From: Peribacillus sp. NPDC096540
GTDB lineage: Bacteria; Bacillota; Bacilli; Bacillales; DSM-1321
Assembly (NCBI RefSeq): GCF_050278525.1
Contig: NZ_JBNNTG010000001.1
Coordinates: forward strand, 137,850-169,849
Direction of reading: 5' to 3'
DNA: 32,000 bases
Position numbers and translations under genes: made by a program. Each line of letters begins with the position of its first letter. The stretch's first letter is position 1. This document shows, in pieces, positions 4,114-22,615 of the stretch. A model generated the notes under the pieces. That model was not told the origin of the DNA. It saw nothing but the letters and a program-made list of their open reading frames with translations, and made no database searches.

Positions 4114-4798
4114 ATGTTTATTTTGTGTTGAGGAAATGAAAGAAGTAATGACATGGAAAAGTCTATTACTGAAGAAAGAGGCAATGACAATTTGTGAAAG
4201 ATGTGAAGGGAAACTTAAAAAGTTAGCCGGCGAGACATGCTCGATTTGTTCTCGAGAGCTTGATGAGAATTACCGCATTGAGGATCTTTGTTTGGATTGT
4301 GTGAGATGGGAAAAAGATAAGAAATGGGGCGGGTATTTGTCCATAAACATATCACTATTTCATTATAATGAATTTCTGAAAGACATGATTGCGAAATATA
4401 AGTACCGAGGAGATTATGCACTGGCTGAGGCCTTCGTGCCCTTTTTAAAAGACAAACTAAAAGACATGAATTTTGATTTGGTAACGTTCATTCCTCTTAG
4501 TAATGAACGGCTGATGGAGAGAGGTTTCAATCAGGCGCAAGCTTTGACAGATCTGCTAGGCGTTAACACGGTTGAGCTATTAACGCGCCTCCATACGGAA
4601 AAACAATCGAAAAAGTCACGTGAGGAACGGATATCATTGCCGCAAGTTTTTCAGGTTACCAAACCGGATTTATTAAAGCACAAATCGATCTTAATCGTGG
4701 ATGACATTTACACAACAGGCTCAACACTCCGGCATGCGGCTAAGGCTTTGAAAACCGCTGGTGCCACAGAAGTTTCATCAATCACTCTGGCTAGGTAA
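4106..4798 (+). CDS. comFC: ComFC (ComF family phosphoribosyltransferase-like competence protein)
   Basis: N-terminus MGRCLFC ... CERC ... CSICSR ... CLDC and a PRTase loop ILIVDDIYTTGST. The start overlaps the comFA stop by 8 nt. Confidence 0.85.
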   Translation: MGRCLFCVEEMKEVMTWKSLLLKKEAMTICERCEGKLKKLAGETCSICSRELDENYRIEDLCLDCVRWEKDKKWGGYLSINISLFHYNEFLKDMIAKYKYRGDYALAEAFVPFLKDKLKDMNFDLVTFIPLSNERLMERGFNQAQALTDLLGVNTVELLTRLHTEKQSKKSREERISLPQVFQVTKPDLLKHKSILIVDDIYTTGSTLRHAAKALKTAGATEVSSITLAR

Positions 4799-4823
4799 AA
4801 CCGAATATTTTTGATAAACCTTC

Positions 4824-4850
4824 TAAAGTATCGCTGCTAATATTCGATAT
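4824..4850 (+). promoter_or_regulatory. SigD-type promoter upstream of yvyF-flgM operon
   Basis: TAAA (4824-4827), 15-nt spacer, TTCGATAT (4843-4850), compared with the consensus TAAA-N15-GCCGATAT. Confidence 0.6.
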
Positions 4851-4899
4851 ATACAGTACTGAAGAACAATCATTGTGATAGTAAAGGAGGGGGCCCTCA

Positions 4900-5319
4900 A
4901 TGGATTTGTTCAACTGCCAAAATTGTAATTCGTTATTTGTTAAAACAAAATTCCGTGATGTTTGCGATGCTTGCTATAAAGAAGAAGAAGCTAAATTTGA
5001 TAAAGTGTATGCCTACATTCGCAAGAAAAGTAATCGAACGGCGTTAATGATGCAAGTGGTGGAGGCCACAGGTGTGGAAGAAGATTTAATTATTAAATTT
5101 GTAAAAACAGGAAAGCTGAGAATTTCTCAATTTCCTAACCTAGGCATTCCTTGTGAAAAATGCGGCACCAACATTCAGAGTGGGAGATTATGTAGCAAAT
5201 GCAGCGATTCCCTTCGCTCTGAATTACAGGCGTTTGAAGATGAAGAAAAGTGCCTAACTAAAATACAAGTACCTAATAAAAAAAATACGTATTATATTAA
5301 AGATAATCACGAAGGATAA
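4900..5319 (+). CDS. yvyF: Flagellar operon protein YvyF (Zn-ribbon, TIGR03826-like)
   Basis: MDLFNCQNCNSLFVKTKFRDVCDACYKEEE ... CEKCG ... CSKC. The position directly upstream of flgM matches B. subtilis. Confidence 0.75.
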   Translation: MDLFNCQNCNSLFVKTKFRDVCDACYKEEEAKFDKVYAYIRKKSNRTALMMQVVEATGVEEDLIIKFVKTGKLRISQFPNLGIPCEKCGTNIQSGRLCSKCSDSLRSELQAFEDEEKCLTKIQVPNKKNTYYIKDNHEG

Positions 5320-10323: not shown

Positions 10324-11547
10324 ATGATTATCAATCACAATATCTCAGCTCTAAACACGCACCGTCAATTATCAAGTGCAACGAATGCACAATCAAAATC
10401 AATGGAGAAACTTGCATCAGGTATGCGTATCAACCGTGCAGGCGATGACGCAGCCGGTCTTGCAATCTCTGAAAAAATGCGTGGACAAATCCGCGGTTTG
10501 GACCAAGCTTCCCGTAACTCCCAAGATGGAATTTCTTTAATCCAAACTGCCGAAGGCGCATTGAACGAAACTACAGACATTCTGCAACGTATGCGTGAGC
10601 TTGCTACACAAGCATCAACTGATACTAATACAACTAGTGACCGTGGAGAAATCCAAAAGGAAATGGATTCATTAACATCTGAAATTAACCGTATCGGTAA
10701 TACTACTGAATTCAATACACAGAAATTATTGAATGGTTCTAAAGACACGGCTACTCTTGCTAAAGATGCTGTTGCAGCAGAAGATGCAGTAGCTGGTGTA
10801 TATTCAATAGCTGGACCAACAGCGGATATTACAATTGATGGGAAAGACTTTGCTTATGATGCTGGTGGAGCAAAAGATTTTAAAGATGTAGATGAGTTGG
10901 TATCAGCAATAAATGCTGATACAGATTTAAAAACTAAGTACACTGCGAGTAAAGATGCAAGTGGTAAACTAGTATTAACACAGAATTCAGGTTTTGAATC
11001 AGCAACAGCACCAACAGGTGCAACATTCACAGAAGATACAGCAGGAAAAGCAGCTGTAGAGGCTAAAGATGCTGTTGAAGCTGGCTCAGGTCTTCAATTC
11101 CAAATCGGTGCAAACGAAAACCAAAGCCTGACACTTGAAATTGGTGACATGCGTGCAAGTGCTCTTGGGTTGACTGGTTCTGGTGCAGGGTTCACAACTG
11201 ATGCAAATGTAAGCAATGGTACAGATTCTAAAGGTGTTGAATCTGGCCTGGATGTTTCTAATGCTAAAAACGCATCAGCGGCTATCACAAAAATCCAAAC
11301 TGCAATTGACACAGTATCAGCTGAACGTTCTAAACTAGGTGCTAACCAAAACCGTTTAGAGCATACTATCAACAACTTAGGTACTTCTTCTGAAAACCTG
11401 ACTGCTGCTGAATCACGTATCCGTGATACAGATATGGCAAAAACAATGATGGAGCAAACTAAAAACTCTATCCTGGCGCAAGCATCACAAGCAATGTTGG
11501 CTCAAGCAAATTCCGCACCTCAAGGGGTTTTACAACTTCTAAGGTAA
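10324..11547 (+). CDS. hag: Flagellin (Hag/FliC), as read from unspliced DNA. An alternative spliced form would be join(10324..11502,11874..11918).
   Basis: MIINHNISALNTHRQL ... conserved D0/D1 N- and C-terminal helices ending QGVLQLLR, with an Ala/Thr/Asp-rich variable middle. Confidence 0.9.
   Translation: MIINHNISALNTHRQLSSATNAQSKSMEKLASGMRINRAGDDAAGLAISEKMRGQIRGLDQASRNSQDGISLIQTAEGALNETTDILQRMRELATQASTDTNTTSDRGEIQKEMDSLTSEINRIGNTTEFNTQKLLNGSKDTATLAKDAVAAEDAVAGVYSIAGPTADITIDGKDFAYDAGGAKDFKDVDELVSAINADTDLKTKYTASKDASGKLVLTQNSGFESATAPTGATFTEDTAGKAAVEAKDAVEAGSGLQFQIGANENQSLTLEIGDMRASALGLTGSGAGFTTDANVSNGTDSKGVESGLDVSNAKNASAAITKIQTAIDTVSAERSKLGANQNRLEHTINNLGTSSENLTAAESRIRDTDMAKTMMEQTKNSILAQASQAMLAQANSAPQGVLQLLR
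10759..10774 (+). repeat. 16-nt direct repeat copy 1 inside the flagellin variable region
   Basis: GCTAAAGATGCTGTTG is identical to 11062-11077. The offset is 303 nt (101 codons, in frame). Confidence 0.9.
11062..11077 (+). repeat. 16-nt direct repeat copy 2 inside the flagellin variable region
   Basis: GCTAAAGATGCTGTTG is identical to 10759-10774. Confidence 0.9.
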
Positions 11548-11873
11548 ATTTGAAGGGCGTTTTATCTAGTAATGGATAAAATTATAACTGGGTGAATTGC
11601 TGGAACTTCCTAAAGCTACATCAACCACAACGTAACTGGAAACGGTAAGCGTGAAGGTTTGAAAATGATGAAGATGATCCAATGGATAATCAGCAGCCAA
11701 GCTCCTTTGAGGAAACTCTGGAGAAGGTTCAACGACTAGGGTATACAGTCTAAGGCGAAGGCTATGACAATGAAATCCGTAGGGTGGCATAAGCCATTCG
11801 AAGTGCCCAGCCCCATAGAATAATATGGGTGAAGATATAGTCTATTCTATGTTCGAAAGACATAGTCGCGAAG
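11503..11873 (+). ncRNA. Group I intron (self-splicing ribozyme), ORF-less, IA-like. The core is certain; the splice boundaries are inferred.
   Basis: P AATTGCTGGAA at 11595-11605. Q AATCAGCAGC at 11688-11697. R GTTCAACGACTAGG at 11727-11740. S AAGATATAGTCT at 11832-11843. Supporting helices: P4 TTGCTGG/TCAGCAG; P7 GACTA/TAGTC; P3 CTGGGTG (11588-11594) with TGCCCAG (11804-11810); P8 CCCATA/TATGGG (11812-11829). P6/P6a (11702-11723) and P9 (11847-11865) both carry GAAA tetraloops. P2 is the hairpin at 11559-11582. The proposed 5' splice site follows U11502 (U.G with G11556) and the proposed omega-G is G11873. Confidence 0.8.
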
Positions 11874-11918
11874 CAAGCGAACCAACAACCACAAGGAGTT
11901 TTACAACTTCTTCGTTAA
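11874..11918 (+). other. Second copy of the flagellin 3' end (14 codons plus stop): putative 3' exon
   Basis: CAA GCG AAC CAA CAA CCA CAA GGA GTT TTA CAA CTT CTT CGT TAA encodes QANQQPQGVLQLLR*. It shares 33/45 nt and 12/14 aa with 11503-11547 and is in frame with exon 1 if joined at 11502/11874. Confidence 0.7.
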
Positions 11919-11934
11919 TTTTAGATTACTTGAA

Positions 11935-11966
11935 AGAGACTCTAGTTTTGCTAGGGTCTCTTTTGT
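11935..11966 (+). terminator. Rho-independent terminator following the second flagellin 3' end
   Basis: 11-bp stem AGAGACTCTAG / CTAGGGTCTCT (one G.U), 5-nt loop, then TTTTGT. No comparable terminator follows the first stop at 11547. Confidence 0.8.
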
Positions 11967-12304
11967 ATAGAAGGAAGCATGGAAAAAAAGTAGAGTTAAG
12001 GGTGAATGAAAATACTAGGGTGGAATCAGGATGGATAAGGCCCAACAAGATCAGAAGGAATTCCTCAAACACAGCTTAAATGGACCAAGGAACAGGTTCT
12101 TATTTTGGACGAGATGGAAGTGAAGTTATGAAATGAAAAGGATAGCAGAATATGCGAAATGAAATTGAGAGGCTAAATTGTGAACTGAATGTCCTAAAGA
12201 AAGAAGGAAATCAGTTACCCGGAACAACAGTTATATAAAGCACTCGGTTAGATAAGCATTACTATTGATAGGGTCTAGCACCTCGATACAATCACGAGGT
12301 GGAG

Positions 12305-13146
12305 TTAGTCTAGTTTTTTGATGTCTTGCCATTTGTAAGTAACTGACCAATAACTTCTTTTTAGCATCTTTGCAATTTCATTTGTTGTATAACCATTTTC
12401 TTTAAGTTGTCTTAGTAATTTAATTTCATCTTGAGAATAGGGTTTAGATCGATCTGAACTGCTGGTAAGAATCGTGTAATCAGGATACTTAGATTTCCAT
12501 CTGAGTATTTCCTTTTGATTTCGGAATTCCCAAGAGGTTTTATATAGCATAGAAGAACAAGTTTTTGCTACAGGTTCGATTAGTTTGAGGAAACGAAAAG
12601 TTTCTTTAACAGAAGTAGTTTTTAGAATATATCCATAACCATCCTTACGAGAACTCAACTTTAAGGATAAATGATATGTGGTAAATATAGTTCCTTTAGT
12701 TTCTCTAATTCGTCTTTAGGATAGCATTGAAGGTAAAGGTAAATATGCGGTGTGAGGTATATAATTCTCTTATTATGATTTATCCTAAATGAGATGCTTA
12801 ATGAGCCATCATCCATGTATAGAATAGTTAGGAAATGTGGTAAACGGCAATTTTTCACTAATGTGAAAGGGAGATGTTTAGTTCCATCTTTGCTGTAAAA
12901 GTGAGGAAATAAATTTGTGAATAATTCCAAAGAAGCGGAACGGACACATTGGCTAGCCGGAGTGATATACAATAATCCATCAAAAAAGGAAATTTTCCAT
13001 TTTCGATAATCTTCCTGAGATGTGCCGTAGTGTTCCCGGTAGCTATTGTTCTTTCTCCTGCTATTTTTATAAATTTTCGTAATTTAACCGTCACTTATAA
13101 TACTGGCATATAATATATTTTTCTGGATTTCAGTAAGATAAATCAT
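12305..13146 (-). pseudogene. Degenerate free-standing LAGLIDADG homing endonuclease gene (double-motif, C-terminal HTH)
   Basis: AAGGAGG RBS then ATG at 13146. Motif 1 is LTEIQKNILYASIISDG, followed by an in-frame TAA at 13084-13086. The same frame continues ...YREHYGTSQEDYRKWKISFF ... to motif 2, FLTILYMDDGSLS (about 12798-12836). A frameshift near 12660 leads into SSRKDGYGYILKTTSVKETFRFLKLIEP ... and an HTH-like tail DEIKLLRQLKENGYTTNEIAKML. Confidence 0.75.
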
Positions 13147-13265
13147 GAAAACCTCCTTATATAAGAGTGTATACTCTTCTTCTTAGTCCCATTCTATAAC
13201 GTTATCCCCTCCAATGGTAGAATGTTTGTTCTCTATTTAATGATAAATCCTTTGTATGTACACTG

Positions 13266-13290
13266 TAAAGTTTCATTTCAGAACCGATAT
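13266..13290 (+). promoter_or_regulatory. Possible SigD-type promoter of flaG-fliDST
   Basis: TAAA (13266-13269) and ACCGATAT (13283-13290). The spacer is 13 nt instead of 15, so the call is only tentative. Confidence 0.4.
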
Positions 13291-13324
13291 AAAAAGTAAA
13301 GATATCATATTGGGGGCTATTTAG

Positions 13325-13687
13325 ATGCTGGAGAGTTTGTCCACGAATATTCTTTCCTCACAACTTAGAACAGCAATCTCAGACGGAATTAGTTCATATT
13401 ATCAACGTGAAATGAATACGCTTGCCTATTCAGAACAAAGTGTAGAATCTAATAATGAGCCTGCAAAAGAAAAGGTGAAAGAAGTAGTGGAAAGTTTGGA
13501 CGCCTTCCTGGATCCAACACATACGGCCATTCGTTTTGAGTATCATGAGGAGCTGAATGAGTATTATGTCAAGGTTGTGGATGACGTTACGGATGAGACG
13601 ATCAGGGAGATCCCTCCTAAGAAGTTACTGGATTTCTATGCGGCAATGACAGAGTTTGTCGGGATTATGGTGGATGAAAAAATATAG
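13325..13687 (+). CDS. flaG: FlaG family flagellar protein
   Basis: C-terminus IRFEYHEELNEYYVKVVDDVTDETIREIPPKKLLDF is the FlaG signature. It lies upstream of fliD. Confidence 0.85.
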   Translation: MLESLSTNILSSQLRTAISDGISSYYQREMNTLAYSEQSVESNNEPAKEKVKEVVESLDAFLDPTHTAIRFEYHEELNEYYVKVVDDVTDETIREIPPKKLLDFYAAMTEFVGIMVDEKI

Positions 13688-17479: not shown

Positions 17480-17792
17480 AACATTGGAACCATCTTGCTT
17501 TGTACATAAAATAGACAAAAACTATCATTAATTTTCTTGATTTTGTAATATTTTGTCGATAAAAAGTTGTATATTGTGGTAAATTAGCGACATAAAATAG
17601 CAATATTTGGAGTCGATATTAGCTATAATAAGATACTAAATATAGTATTTGTAATAATTACCCTGACAAAGGCAAACTTAGCGAAAGGTGAGGTCGCAAG
17701 GCATAGGTCTAAGGTTGCTTGATACTAAGATGGACTGGTCTGCTTAAAATACATACAAGTAGTATTTTAGGAGGATAAAAGAGGTGGTTTAA

Positions 17793-17924
17793 GTGAAAGT
17801 GGATCAAGAATGGGTGAAGTTGATTGCAGAAGCTAGGAAATTGGGTTTTAAGAAAGAAGAAATTAGTGCTTTTTTACAAAAAGAGAATCTTAATGTGTCA
17901 ATAGAGGAGAACAATGAAAACTAA
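17793..17924 (+). CDS. sinI: SinI-like antirepressor (43 aa); absent from the ORF track because it is under 60 aa
   Basis: GTG start 5 nt after GAGGTGG, with tandem SDs. VDQEWVKLIAEARKLGFKKEEISAFL matches the SinI/SinR oligomerisation helix motif (B. subtilis SinI has LDQEWVELMVEAKEANISPEEIRKYL, from memory). Confidence 0.65.
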   Translation: MKVDQEWVKLIAEARKLGFKKEEISAFLQKENLNVSIEENNEN

Positions 17925-18074: not shown

Positions 18075-18398
18075 CTATTCTTCTTTATCTTTTCTCCATT
18101 TATTAAACTCAATGAACTCTCTGAATTGTTGTTTAGAAACGCCAGAATTCATGGCTTCCTCAACAATTTTCATCCAGTCAGTGTCCAAGGATTCCTTATT
18201 TGGTACATCGTAAAGAAGGGCATCTACAGGAATGTTAAGTACAGCGGAGATTTTTTCAAGAAATTGAATAGAAGGATTCGTTTGTAAGTTCCGCTCGAGC
18301 GAACTTAAGTATGACTTTGCTACTCCGGCTTTATCGGCTAGTTCAGTCATTGACATTTTCTTTTCTTCTCGCAGTTTTTTTACACGTTCACCAATCAA
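18075..18398 (-). CDS. sinR: SinR-like XRE-family master regulator of biofilm/motility
   Basis: TTG start 5 nt after GAGGTGG gives MIGERVKKLREEKKMSMTELADKAGVAKSYLSSLERNLQTNPSIQFLEKISAVLNIPV ... SGVSKQQFREFIEFNKWRKDKEE. This is near-collinear with B. subtilis SinR as recalled. The 22 extra N-terminal residues in the ORF track are rejected. Confidence 0.8.
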   Translation of the reverse strand: MIGERVKKLREEKKMSMTELADKAGVAKSYLSSLERNLQTNPSIQFLEKISAVLNIPVDALLYDVPNKESLDTDWMKIVEEAMNSGVSKQQFREFIEFNKWRKDKEE

Positions 18399-18838
18399 CA
18401 ATACCACCTCGAAACATGTTCTATTTATCTTCAATTTATAAGTTTTAAACCCACATAAAATCACAGGAATAGGAAGCCTGAAAAGCTAGATTACTTCAAC
18501 TGACTATCAGTATAGAGGGACCAAAAATATCTATTAATAGAAGGTTGTGTTTAATCCGCATTTTCGTTTGTCTTGTTAAAGACTCATATGAAAAGTGGGG
18601 GAATGTGTAAGGTACTTTTGATACTTCCCTCTATTTTAACAGCTCTACCCCTCTTTTATCCATTGTTTTTCGTAAGAATTGAATTCAGGTCCATAGACAT
18701 AGAGTGACATGAAGTTGTACCTCTAGAATAGAAGTGTTAAAATTAAGCTTGGATTAGTATTAACAGAAGGTGTGTTTCTTCTTACTTATATGAATGTGTT
18801 ATTGAATGATCATTACCATAATAGAGGAGCGTTATTGA

Positions 18839-21516: not shown

Positions 21517-22615
21517 ATGGAATTAGCAGAAATTAGAAATGAACTTGAACGAACCGCGCAACGATTAACGGACTTTAGGGGGTCTCTTTGACTTAGATGA
21601 AAAAGAGGCACGAATCGCACAGCTAGAAAATGAGATGACACACCCTGATTTTTGGAATGATCAGTCAAAAGCACAGACTGTTATTAATGAAACGAATGCA
21701 TTGAAAGATCAAGTCAATCAATTGTCCGATTTGAATGATGCGTATGAAAATCTGGATTTGACGTATGAATTAGTGAAAGAAGAAAGTGATGAAGAACTTC
21801 TGGCTGAACTAGTAGAAGAAATCACAATTCTTTCACAAAAGATGAATGAATTTGAACTTCAGCTCTTACTAAGTGAAGAATATGATTCGAAAAATGCAAT
21901 TCTGGAATTGCATCCTGGTGCAGGCGGAACTGAGTCCCAAGATTGGGGTTCAATGTTGCTTCGTATGTATACAAGATGGGGCGAAAAAAGGGGCTTTAAA
22001 GTAGAAACCCTTGATTACCTTCCAGGTGATGAAGCTGGAATCAAGAGTGTCACGTTGCTGTTCAAAGGCCATAACGCATATGGTTATTTGAAAGCAGAAA
22101 AAGGTGTTCACCGTCTTGTTCGGATTTCTCCTTTCGATTCATCAGGCCGCCGTCATACTTCATTCGTTTCTTGCGAAGTTATGCCGGAATTCGACGAGAC
22201 GATTAATATAGAAATTCGTACGGAAGATCTGAAGGTAGACACGTACCGGGCAAGTGGGGCAGGTGGTCAGCATATCAATACGACTGACTCAGCCGTAAGG
22301 ATAACGCATTTACCTACGAATACTGTGGTAACGTGCCAAAACGAGAGATCGCAAATCAAAAATAAGGCTCAAGCCATGAATATGCTGAAAGCCAAATTAT
22401 ATCAACTTGAAATTGAACAACAGCAAGCCGATTTGGATGAAATTCGCGGAGAACAAAAGGAAATTGGTTGGGGAAGCCAAATTCGTTCTTACGTCTTCCA
22501 TCCGTACTCCATGGTAAAAGACCACCGTACTAGTGCGGAGACAGGGAACTTGGGAGCTGTCATGGACGGAGATATCGATATGTTCATTGATGCGTATTTA
22601 CGTTCAAAATTATAA
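21517..22615 (+). CDS. prfB: Peptide chain release factor 2, requiring a programmed +1 frameshift: join(21517..21588,21590..22615)
   Basis: Frame 0 encodes [24 protein letters not shown] and then hits TGA. The +1 frame continues [16 protein letters not shown] ... and carries the SPF and GGQ motifs. Confidence 0.95.
21577..21592 (+). promoter_or_regulatory. RF2 autoregulatory +1 frameshift site
   Basis: AGGGGG TCT CTT TGA C: an internal SD-like AGGGGG, 3-nt spacer, then the slippery CTT followed by in-frame TGA C. This is the canonical prfB recoding signal. Confidence 0.9.

Follow-up and report, generated by a model that had tools for sequence, protein, structure and literature searches.

The element described here lies at the 3' end of the flagellin gene hag in a 32,000-nt stretch of the Peribacillus sp. 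NPDC096540 genome (GCF_050278525.1, contig NZ_JBNNTG010000001.1, positions 137,850–169,849 of the forward strand), referred to below as the window. The gene belongs to a late flagellar cluster (flgM, flgN, flgK, flgL, DUF6470, fliW, csrA, hag, flaG, fliD, fliS), and its open reading frame (ORF, 10324–11547) matches the Pfam domains Flagellin_N (164 bits) and Flagellin_C (94.7 bits), the latter over the entire profile (1–86 of 86). An earlier note, made from the letters of this DNA, proposed a group I intron at the extreme end of hag. Our analysis agrees and places the intron between Ala393 (GCU) and the final 14 codons of the gene; the ORF looks intact because the first 45 nt of the intron are a selectively maintained in-frame copy of exon 2 with a stop codon (hereinafter, the mimic). 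The two copies differ mainly at synonymous positions. We consider it likely that this is a self-splicing intron of the IA type carrying a spare exon 2 within P1, the helix of the 5' splice site, and that complete flagellin would be produced from both unspliced and spliced mRNA.

Comparison with Rfam (cmscan) yielded a match to Intron_gpI (RF00028, gathering score 50 bits) at 11529–11865 of the forward strand, with 87.1 bits, an E-value of 3.8e-21, and the complete model (1–253) covered. A permissive rescan of 11300–13400 (E ≤ 1) retrieved no Rfam family besides Intron_gpI and, in particular, no ligand-binding aptamer adjoining the ribozyme, such as would mark an allosteric riboswitch–ribozyme. 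The conserved elements P, Q, R, and S are all present in order where the earlier note had located them, as are helices P2, P3, P4, P7, and P8 and the GAAA loops of P6a and P9. Its assignment to an IA-like type was likewise borne out, as P7.1 and P7.2, the mark of the phage-type subgroup IA, lie between P7 and the 3' strand of P3; the flagellin introns of Geobacillus are reportedly IA2, and the window intron is placed only to the IA level. The intron has no internal endonuclease ORF, as the note had claimed, its sole read-through in 371 nt being the 14-codon exon copy. ORFs 11566–11790 (reverse strand) and 11825–12079 (forward strand), which overlie the ribozyme and which the note had called artefacts, have no Pfam match. 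Directly 3' of the intron are exon 2 and a terminator-like hairpin, not the IS200/605-type transposase of an IStron. Thus, by every criterion that can be applied to sequence, the window element is a group I intron of the IA type.

The fold was assessed on a MAFFT alignment of 50 introns inserted at the same position of flagellin genes (class B: 49 complete loci, numbered with the prefix L, and the window), with the secondary structure from P1 to P9 written from the window sequence. The 99 scored pairs are formed in 91.0% of the alignment cells, compared to 78.3% in shuffled alignments and 33–41% with slid partners, the covariation score is 0.376 (0.142 in shuffles), and none of 500 shuffles attained any of the observed measures. 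Changes on both sides are seen at 61 of the 99 pairs. These compensatory changes, found in nearly every helix, indicate that the fold is still under selection and speak against an ordinary intergenic region without such changes, the alternative that the earlier note had allowed for. As the loci were selected by an exact P/Q/R pattern spanning both strands of P4 (P, Q) and the 5' strand of P7 (R), the invariance of P4 and P7 adds little. The minimum free energy structure of the window intron alone has z = −1.5, which carries little weight as a test of significance, although most helices are recovered in it. In the comparative fold of the window, every pair is standard except for one A·A in P5a.

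The predicted splice-site positions, 11502/11503 and 11873/11874, are fixed by comparison with the other loci and coincide with the boundaries given in the earlier note. Directly 5' of the intron, ...ATG(T/C)T(G/A)GCT is found in all 50 class B loci. P1 consists of the pairs G11500–C11558 and C11501–G11557, the wobble U11502·G11556 at the splice site, and C11503–G11555; the U·G wobble is retained in 50/50 homologues and the flanking C–G pairs, in 50/50 and 49/50. At the other end, the terminal G11873 is invariant (50/50) and is followed in all loci by CA(A/G)GCNAA(C/T)CAA. Joining 11502 to 11874 would yield ...SQAMLA/QANQQPQGVLQLLR and a stop, in frame and with the canonical C-terminus, the predicted junction being ...TTGGCT/CAAGCG..., that is, ...ATGTTGGCT/CAAGCGAACC... 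The ligated exons match alleles that lack an intron at this position, e.g., in Sporosarcina sp. A2 (L008), with 91% identity over 102 nt across the junction.

The P1 hairpin is about 50 nt long in the window. Compensations in its extension are seen in other loci, e.g., CAATAG/CTATTG, TCTCAACAA/TTGTTGAG, and a 13-bp version in L059, and per-locus folding gives the extension a mean duplex energy of −6.1 kcal/mol, compared to −2.8 kcal/mol for shuffled sequences. The control with partners from other loci (−4.65 kcal/mol) is weak, since many loci share AATCAA, and therefore the argument for the extension rests on the individual compensations. A count of extension pairs on the MAFFT alignment, where the 3' strand is misaligned and 21–46% of cells are paired, was discarded and replaced by the per-locus folding.

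The exon copy has exactly 14 in-frame codons and a stop in 49 of the 50 class B loci. In the exception, L044 from Oceanobacillus arenosus, TAA is the first codon of the mimic and a second in-frame TAA follows, so that full-length flagellin would require splicing. In the window, the mimic stop lies 8 nt ahead of the guide and shares sequence with the 3' side of the P1 extension; across class B loci, the spacer between stop and guide is 7–18 nt. Variation of the mimic is 0.44 at third and 0.085 at second codon positions, and its pooled Nei–Gojobori ratio of non-synonymous to synonymous differences (pN/pS) is 0.23, similar to the values of exon 2 (0.17) and of the end of exon 1 (0.21), whereas the two remaining frames of the mimic DNA give 0.82 and 3.6. 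When each mimic is compared to the exon 2 of its own locus, pS is 0.76 and pN is 0.165. Gene conversion as the source of their likeness is ruled out by this pS, and with 76% synonymous versus 16.5% non-synonymous difference the two copies are old paralogues rather than products of conversion. The similarity extends to endings specific for the host, common to both copies: LLG and a stop in Alkalicoccus and Gracilibacillus, LLQ and a stop in Oceanobacillus, and QQV in C. gallinarum. For example, L003 has ...QSVLQLLG in both copies, with Ser encoded by TCG in one and by AGC in the other; both copies end with LLQ in L026 and L101, and both contain QQVLQLLR in L055.

The predicted C-terminal peptides of the window flagellin are ...AQANSAPQGVLQLLR from unspliced and ...AQANQQPQGVLQLLR from spliced mRNA. 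The two C-termini differ at two residues (SA vs. QQ); elsewhere, the difference is 0–4 of 14 residues, mostly at positions 2, 4, and 5. The differences in codons 2–4 coincide with the P1 extension and may reflect needs of the RNA rather than of protein function. Judging by these patterns of substitution, both the intron-borne copy and exon 2 are under purifying selection at the protein level, and the simplest reading would be that unspliced mRNA serves for translation of the mimic and spliced mRNA for that of exon 2. The class B arrangement of the window recurs, conserved, in 49 or more further species of Bacillota.

The homologues come from one P...Q...R pattern scan of species-representative genomes, which yielded at least 119 loci. 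Of about 130 intron copies among the matches listed, 98 lie in flagellin genes, at two insertion sites, with hosts in Bacillaceae, Planococcaceae, Exiguobacterium, Clostridium, Fusibacter, and Peptostreptococcaceae, and by this count flagellin is a common home of the lineage. Introns of class A (at least 47 copies: L001, L008, L022, and 44 others; e.g., L008:3928–4064) split flagellin at ...ESRIRDVD/MAKEMM..., and their read-through is only five codons (YALAA and a stop), unlike their exon 2. Class B introns, 14 codons before the stop, comprise at least 49 complete loci and the window, with two more copies cut by locus ends (L019, L108). The class A site is 105 nt upstream of the class B site and is uninterrupted in the window (11411–11455); in at least ten loci (L026, L032, L042, L058, L065, L066, L074, L078, L092, L104), both introns interrupt one hag, about 455 nt apart. 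Class A copies are 86% and class B copies 78% identical among themselves; identity falls to 69% between the classes and to about 60% with introns of other genes. The main difference of the guides is GUC in class A (pairing with GAU/) versus GGC in class B (pairing with GCU/). Among the matches listed, the nearest to the window intron is the copy of Peribacillus muralis (93%).

The earlier note, in which the exon 2 copy, the intron family, the class A sister site, and the endonuclease pseudogene described below do not appear, called bacterial group I introns in protein-coding chromosomal genes rare. For the flagellin gene this was overstated, since the family, with at least 98 flagellin copies, is present in dozens of Bacillota genomes. 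Its mention of flagellin introns in Geobacillus was right: group I introns in these genes are attributed to Hayakawa and Ishizuka (2009, 2012), as cited in PMC3984707 and PMC4853749. There is no Geobacillus locus among the 119 matches listed. A BLAST search of phage genomes matched the conserved P3–P6 core alone (34–38% of the query, 69–78% identity) and revealed no close phage relative. In Staphylococcus, Listeria, and Serratia phages, the identity of P3–P6 is 75–78%, to unannotated or hypothetical-protein regions, which we take to be intron cores.

Several individual loci deviate from the general picture. A decayed class B copy is found in L061 (1–1000, reverse strand), where hag ends with the canonical C-terminus, followed by a 93-aa ORF (444–725); the ribozyme is truncated at the 5' end and lacks P1 and the guide, yet a copy of exon 2 is retained, as is a terminator. 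The hag copy in L049 (Neobacillus niacini 3240), with a stop within the end of exon 1 (SILS-stop-AAQ), may be a pseudogene. In L087 (Priestia megaterium BHS1), a gap of approximately 300 nt between flagellin tblastn segments near the class A site (about 4620–4917) suggests, besides the class B intron, a second intron missed by the exact pattern. The pattern also matches group I introns outside flagellin, in L029 (Neobacillus), L063 (Evansella), L089 (Fictibacillus), and about 20 other loci, several of them with a distinct 5' region GTCCGCGTC(A/G)TTCAGAAAATGAA(T/C)GAC.

Table 1. Features of hag, its intron, and the downstream region (positions in the window).
Feature	Position	Strand	Basis and remarks
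hag exon 1, ending ATG TTG GCT (MLA)	10324–11502	+	Pfam and shared class B motif
Group I intron, IA type, 371 nt, without endonuclease ORF	11503–11873	+	RF00028 and 50-locus fold
Mimic: 14 codons QANSAPQGVLQLLR and TAA (11545–11547)	11503–11547	+	In-frame exon 2 copy; P1-extension 5' strand and P1 loop
P1 (5' splice-site helix)	11500–11503 with 11555–11558	+	GCU/C with guide GGGC; 100% of cells paired
P1 extension (intron +5 to +10)	11507–11512 with 11547–11552	+	Per-locus duplex folding
P2 hairpin, 8 bp	11560–11581	+	95.7% paired; 7/8 pairs vary on both sides
Catalytic core P3–P8 overall	11588–11842	+	Fold and covariation
P3	11588–11593 with 11805–11810	+	Comparative fold
P element AATTGCTGGAA	11595–11605	+	Sequence
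P4	11598–11603 with 11690–11695	+	Invariant across alignment
P5, including extended arm	11608–11686	+	P5a with several compensatory pairs
Q element AATCAGCAGC	11688–11697	+	Sequence
P6/P6a	11696–11728	+	P6a with several compensatory pairs; GAAA loop 11712–11715
R element GTTCAACGACTAGG	11727–11740	+	Sequence
P7 (GACTA/TAGTC)	11734–11738 with 11838–11842	+	Invariant across alignment
P7.1	11739–11778	+	4/4 pairs vary on both sides
P7.2	11782–11799	+	7/7 pairs vary on both sides
P8	11812–11817 with 11824–11829	+	Several compensatory pairs
S element AAGATATAGTCT	11832–11843	+	Sequence
P9 hairpin	11847–11865	+	GAAA loop 11855–11858
Hairpin spanning 3' splice site	11866–11869 with 11877–11880	+	One pair covaries (GC 23, CG 15, UA 7)
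hag exon 2: QANQQPQGVLQLLR and TAA (11916–11918)	11874–11918	+	3' of the intron in all 50 loci
Terminator-like hairpin, 11 bp (11935–11945 with 11951–11961), and T-rich run	11935–11969	+	Read from sequence
LAGLIDADG_2 free-standing homing endonuclease pseudogene	12314–13155	−	tblastn and Pfam; convergent with hag

Exon 2 is followed by a GC-rich hairpin and a T-run in most class B loci with downstream sequence read. The corresponding hairpin of the window was not flagged by a simple terminator scan, and the stretch from the mimic stop to exon 2 showed no terminator-like site.

Approximately 400 nt downstream of the intron, outside it and on the opposite strand, there is a remnant of a LAGLIDADG homing endonuclease gene, with an in-frame stop inside the first LAGLIDADG motif (SDG-stop-ITK) and a frameshift near 12680–12690. 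By tblastn with the intact protein from L019, the pseudogene shows 69% and 59% identity in two frames, and the Pfam LAGLIDADG_2 scores are 30 bits for the window fragment and 62 bits for the L019 protein. Uninterrupted homologues of 284–310 codons occupy the same position in L019, L024, L032, L048, L060, and L105, beside intron-bearing hag genes of Peribacillus loiseleuriae, Salimicrobium, Rossellomorea, Planococcus, and Exiguobacterium; they have two LAGLIDADG motifs and, according to Pfam, a helix-turn-helix (HTH)-like tail in the L019 protein. The free-standing endonuclease probably helped the ORF-less introns to spread between genomes and then decayed.

Two further observations concern more distant parts of the window. 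A c-di-GMP-I riboswitch (RF01051, 47.1 bits, 17661–17746, forward strand) lies 5.8 kb from the intron, upstream of another gene, about 45 nt before a 43-aa ORF of the SinI anti-repressor family (17793–17924, forward strand; PF08671, 40.5 bits); a SinR-like gene with HTH_3 and SinI domains (18075–18464, reverse strand) is convergent with it. This arrangement suggests c-di-GMP control of a SinI/SinR switch between biofilm and motility. The ORF of prfB, encoding release factor RF2 (21635–22615, forward strand), begins at position 12 of the PCRF profile, consistent with the programmed +1 frameshift near the 5' end of this gene.

How the intron could coexist with translation may be imagined as follows. 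Few mRNAs of the cell are translated as heavily as that of flagellin, and the conflict between translation and ribozyme folding should thus be severe in hag. On unspliced mRNA, the ribosome would read past the 5' splice site and produce a complete flagellin ending with QANSAPQGVLQLLR, while splicing of 11502 to 11874 would produce one ending with QANQQPQGVLQLLR. While reading the P1 segment or stopping there, a ribosome would shield the guide as well as the 5' splice site and the P1 extension. Formation of P1 would be limited to mRNA momentarily clear of ribosomes, and splicing would thus compete with translation. The spare exon would make the intron harmless whichever of the two wins, and by removing the cost of failed splicing it would explain the persistence of a group I intron in a highly translated bacterial gene. 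Interference between translation and splicing and in-frame stops in bacterial group I introns have been reviewed in PMC3984707. We tentatively extend this to a possible general view of class B as conserved "optional" group I splicing in bacteria, an evolved answer to the conflict between translation and folding, where retention and splicing both yield functional flagellin with slightly different C-termini; the ratio of spliced to unspliced mRNA might respond to the translation state of hag (CsrA/FliW) or to temperature.

A number of points weigh against a self-splicing intron with a spare exon 2. P1 proper has just four base pairs, its extension in the window is weak (six A/U-rich pairs, −3.3 kcal/mol), and P5a contains the A·A mismatch. 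Selection of loci by an exact pattern makes the conservation of the core elements circular and leaves decayed copies under-sampled. The ribosome-occlusion argument rests on general footprint sizes, not on hag mRNA. If unspliced mRNA yields good flagellin, the ribozyme would need another reason to stay intact; selection on ribozyme and exon 2 might come from a canonical C-terminus that works slightly better, from altered mRNA stability, or from regulation. Finally, predicted spliced flagellins of eight species are absent from a collection of 15 billion proteins in which the unspliced forms are present, although this absence says nothing either way about splicing. As the mimic-terminated proteins of Exiguobacterium antarcticum (WP_026830134.1) and P. 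muralis (WP_057911987.1) bear just the name "flagellin" in the database and the spliced forms are absent, the intron is invisible to current ORF-based annotation, as the earlier note had anticipated; for the flagellin of the window itself, no record was found in protein databases.

Other explanations have to account for the same data. Were the intron a conventional one that must be spliced, the 14-codon copy would never be used as protein and would be kept for RNA reasons: it could build the P1 extension and loop, replace exon 2 during the P1/P10 exchange, or merely halt ribosomes before the core, as in phage T4 introns. Indeed, the 5' side of the P1 extension is formed by mimic codons 2–4, CAAGC/CAATC stands at the start of the intron as well as of exon 2, as expected for strand exchange from P1 to P10, and group I introns of bacteria and phages often contain an in-frame stop shortly past the 5' splice site (PMC3984707). 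However, constraint on RNA predicts neither the period-3 variation nor the pN/pS of 0.23 in one frame, neither the fixed length of 14 codons nor exon 2 residues encoded by different codons (TCG vs. AGC); moreover, since the class A read-through has only five codons unlike its exon 2, a long mimic is not a general need of this ribozyme lineage, and we regard this explanation as unlikely. The opposite possibility is a dead relic, where hag ends at 11547, and the ribozyme and "exon 2" are no more than structured but inert 3' untranslated sequence, the residue of some old duplication or rearrangement. It would fit the complete flagellin encoded by ORF 10324–11547, the form recorded in databases for relatives, the decay of the adjacent endonuclease gene, and the truly decayed copy in L061, but it is very unlikely given the compensatory changes in nearly every helix, the invariance of the splice-site U·G and the terminal G, and the intact core elements of the window. 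Besides, exon 2 is constrained (pN/pS 0.17) and tracks the host-specific LLG and LLQ endings, and therefore would be translated, which needs splicing.

The ribozyme could also be domesticated as a regulator, the host using temperature, the CsrA/FliW translation state, or guanosine/GTP supply as a switch between the two C-termini or to alter hag mRNA stability; this overlaps with a spare-exon intron to which a host function is added. It is favored by reports, cited in PMC4853749, that splicing of flagellin introns depends on temperature and may serve regulation, by the location of csrA and fliW immediately upstream of hag, by the allosteric group I ribozyme of Clostridioides difficile (PMC8987985) as a precedent, and by the very retention of an intact ribozyme in a gene whose unspliced mRNA encodes a whole flagellin, suggesting some value in splicing. 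Nevertheless, it seems rather unlikely, as there is no adjacent ligand-binding RNA in the Rfam rescan (E ≤ 1, 11300–13400), the C-termini differ little and in part in codons that may reflect RNA needs, and no host function is required of a selfish element equipped with a fail-safe. As for the boundaries, the cmscan alignment puts P1 at 11533–11541/11554–11562, where U11540·G11555 could pair, implying splicing after U11540 with the 3' site after G11865 and the junction ...CAACTTCT/TCGCGAAG. This P1 was rejected, with 53.6% of cells paired, the same as in shuffles, and zero covariation; furthermore, ligation of 11540 to 11866 would shift the frame and add approximately 70 unrelated residues (the frame of ORF 11825–12079, without a Pfam match), and G11865 sits within P9 of the comparative fold, so such boundaries are extremely improbable.

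Protein-coding genes of bacteria are considered largely closed to group I introns, as ribosomes trailing the polymerase interfere with the folding of the ribozyme (PMC3984707). Nonetheless, a single lineage of introns occupies one of the cell's most heavily translated genes across Bacilli and Clostridia, with what appears to be a built-in spare exon. If confirmed, this would provide a simple testable explanation for the persistence of such introns, a natural system to measure competition between translation and splicing, and a bacterial example of two protein forms generated by intron retention versus splicing. In practical terms, the intron and exon 2 are unannotated in many Bacillota flagellin genes, and the annotated C-terminus may not be the sole or main one in flagellins of Priestia, Peribacillus, Metabacillus, Neobacillus, Planococcus, Exiguobacterium, and some Clostridium.

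Among known systems, the flagellin introns of thermophilic Geobacillus and Bacillus, as described in the citing papers, are the closest, sharing with the window intron the gene, the group I IA class, and the location in Bacillaceae chromosomes; temperature-dependent splicing has been reported for those of Geobacillus, as cited in PMC4853749. In our literature search, flagellin-gene introns surfaced only via citations of the Geobacillus papers. The passages on these introns in the citing reviews mention neither an in-frame exon copy nor a site at the last 14 codons, which possibly are described in the original papers or elsewhere. Class A, with its site at ESRIRDVD/MAKEMM and five-codon read-through, looks like a conventional intron. 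The T4 introns of td, nrdB, and sunY and other IA introns share the IA core with P7.1/P7.2 and an in-frame stop upstream of the core, and in phage and bacterial IA introns translation and splicing are known to interact (PMC3984707). In these T4 and other IA introns, reading on adds just a short, meaningless peptide, and a functional protein depends on splicing, whereas in hag the read-through reproduces the missing exon, and a full-length product would be obtained without splicing.

Bonocora and Shub reportedly described, in 2009, a free-standing endonuclease together with an ORF-less intron. The hag locus also resembles "collaborative," or trans, homing, such as that of T4 mobE, where, as outlined in PMC3984707, an ORF-less intron is accompanied by a separate endonuclease gene beside the host gene. 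Some genomes have an intact endonuclease gene beside hag and others a decayed one, as would be seen in a homing cycle. The endonuclease differs from the trans-homing examples in belonging to the LAGLIDADG_2 family, in the HTH-like tail, and in the convergent orientation relative to hag. The c-di-GMP-II group I ribozyme of C. difficile (Lee et al., 2010, as cited in PMC8987985) is likewise chromosomal in Bacillota, lacks an endonuclease, and changes translation upon splicing, but it sits in a 5' leader together with the riboswitch fused to it, and it generates a ribosome-binding site. The hag intron, in contrast, is situated at the 3' end of the coding region and has no aptamer, and both outcomes encode nearly the same protein. 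An S-layer gene of Clostridium tetani contains an alternatively spliced group II intron. IStrons, as summarized in PMC4853749, carry an IS200/605 transposase. Both are bacterial self-splicing elements able to give several protein forms from a single gene, but neither of the two has a copy of the downstream exon that makes retention equal to splicing. Relative to the literature searched, the novelty lies in a downstream-exon copy housed within P1, conserved and constrained at the protein level, along with the breadth of the intron family.

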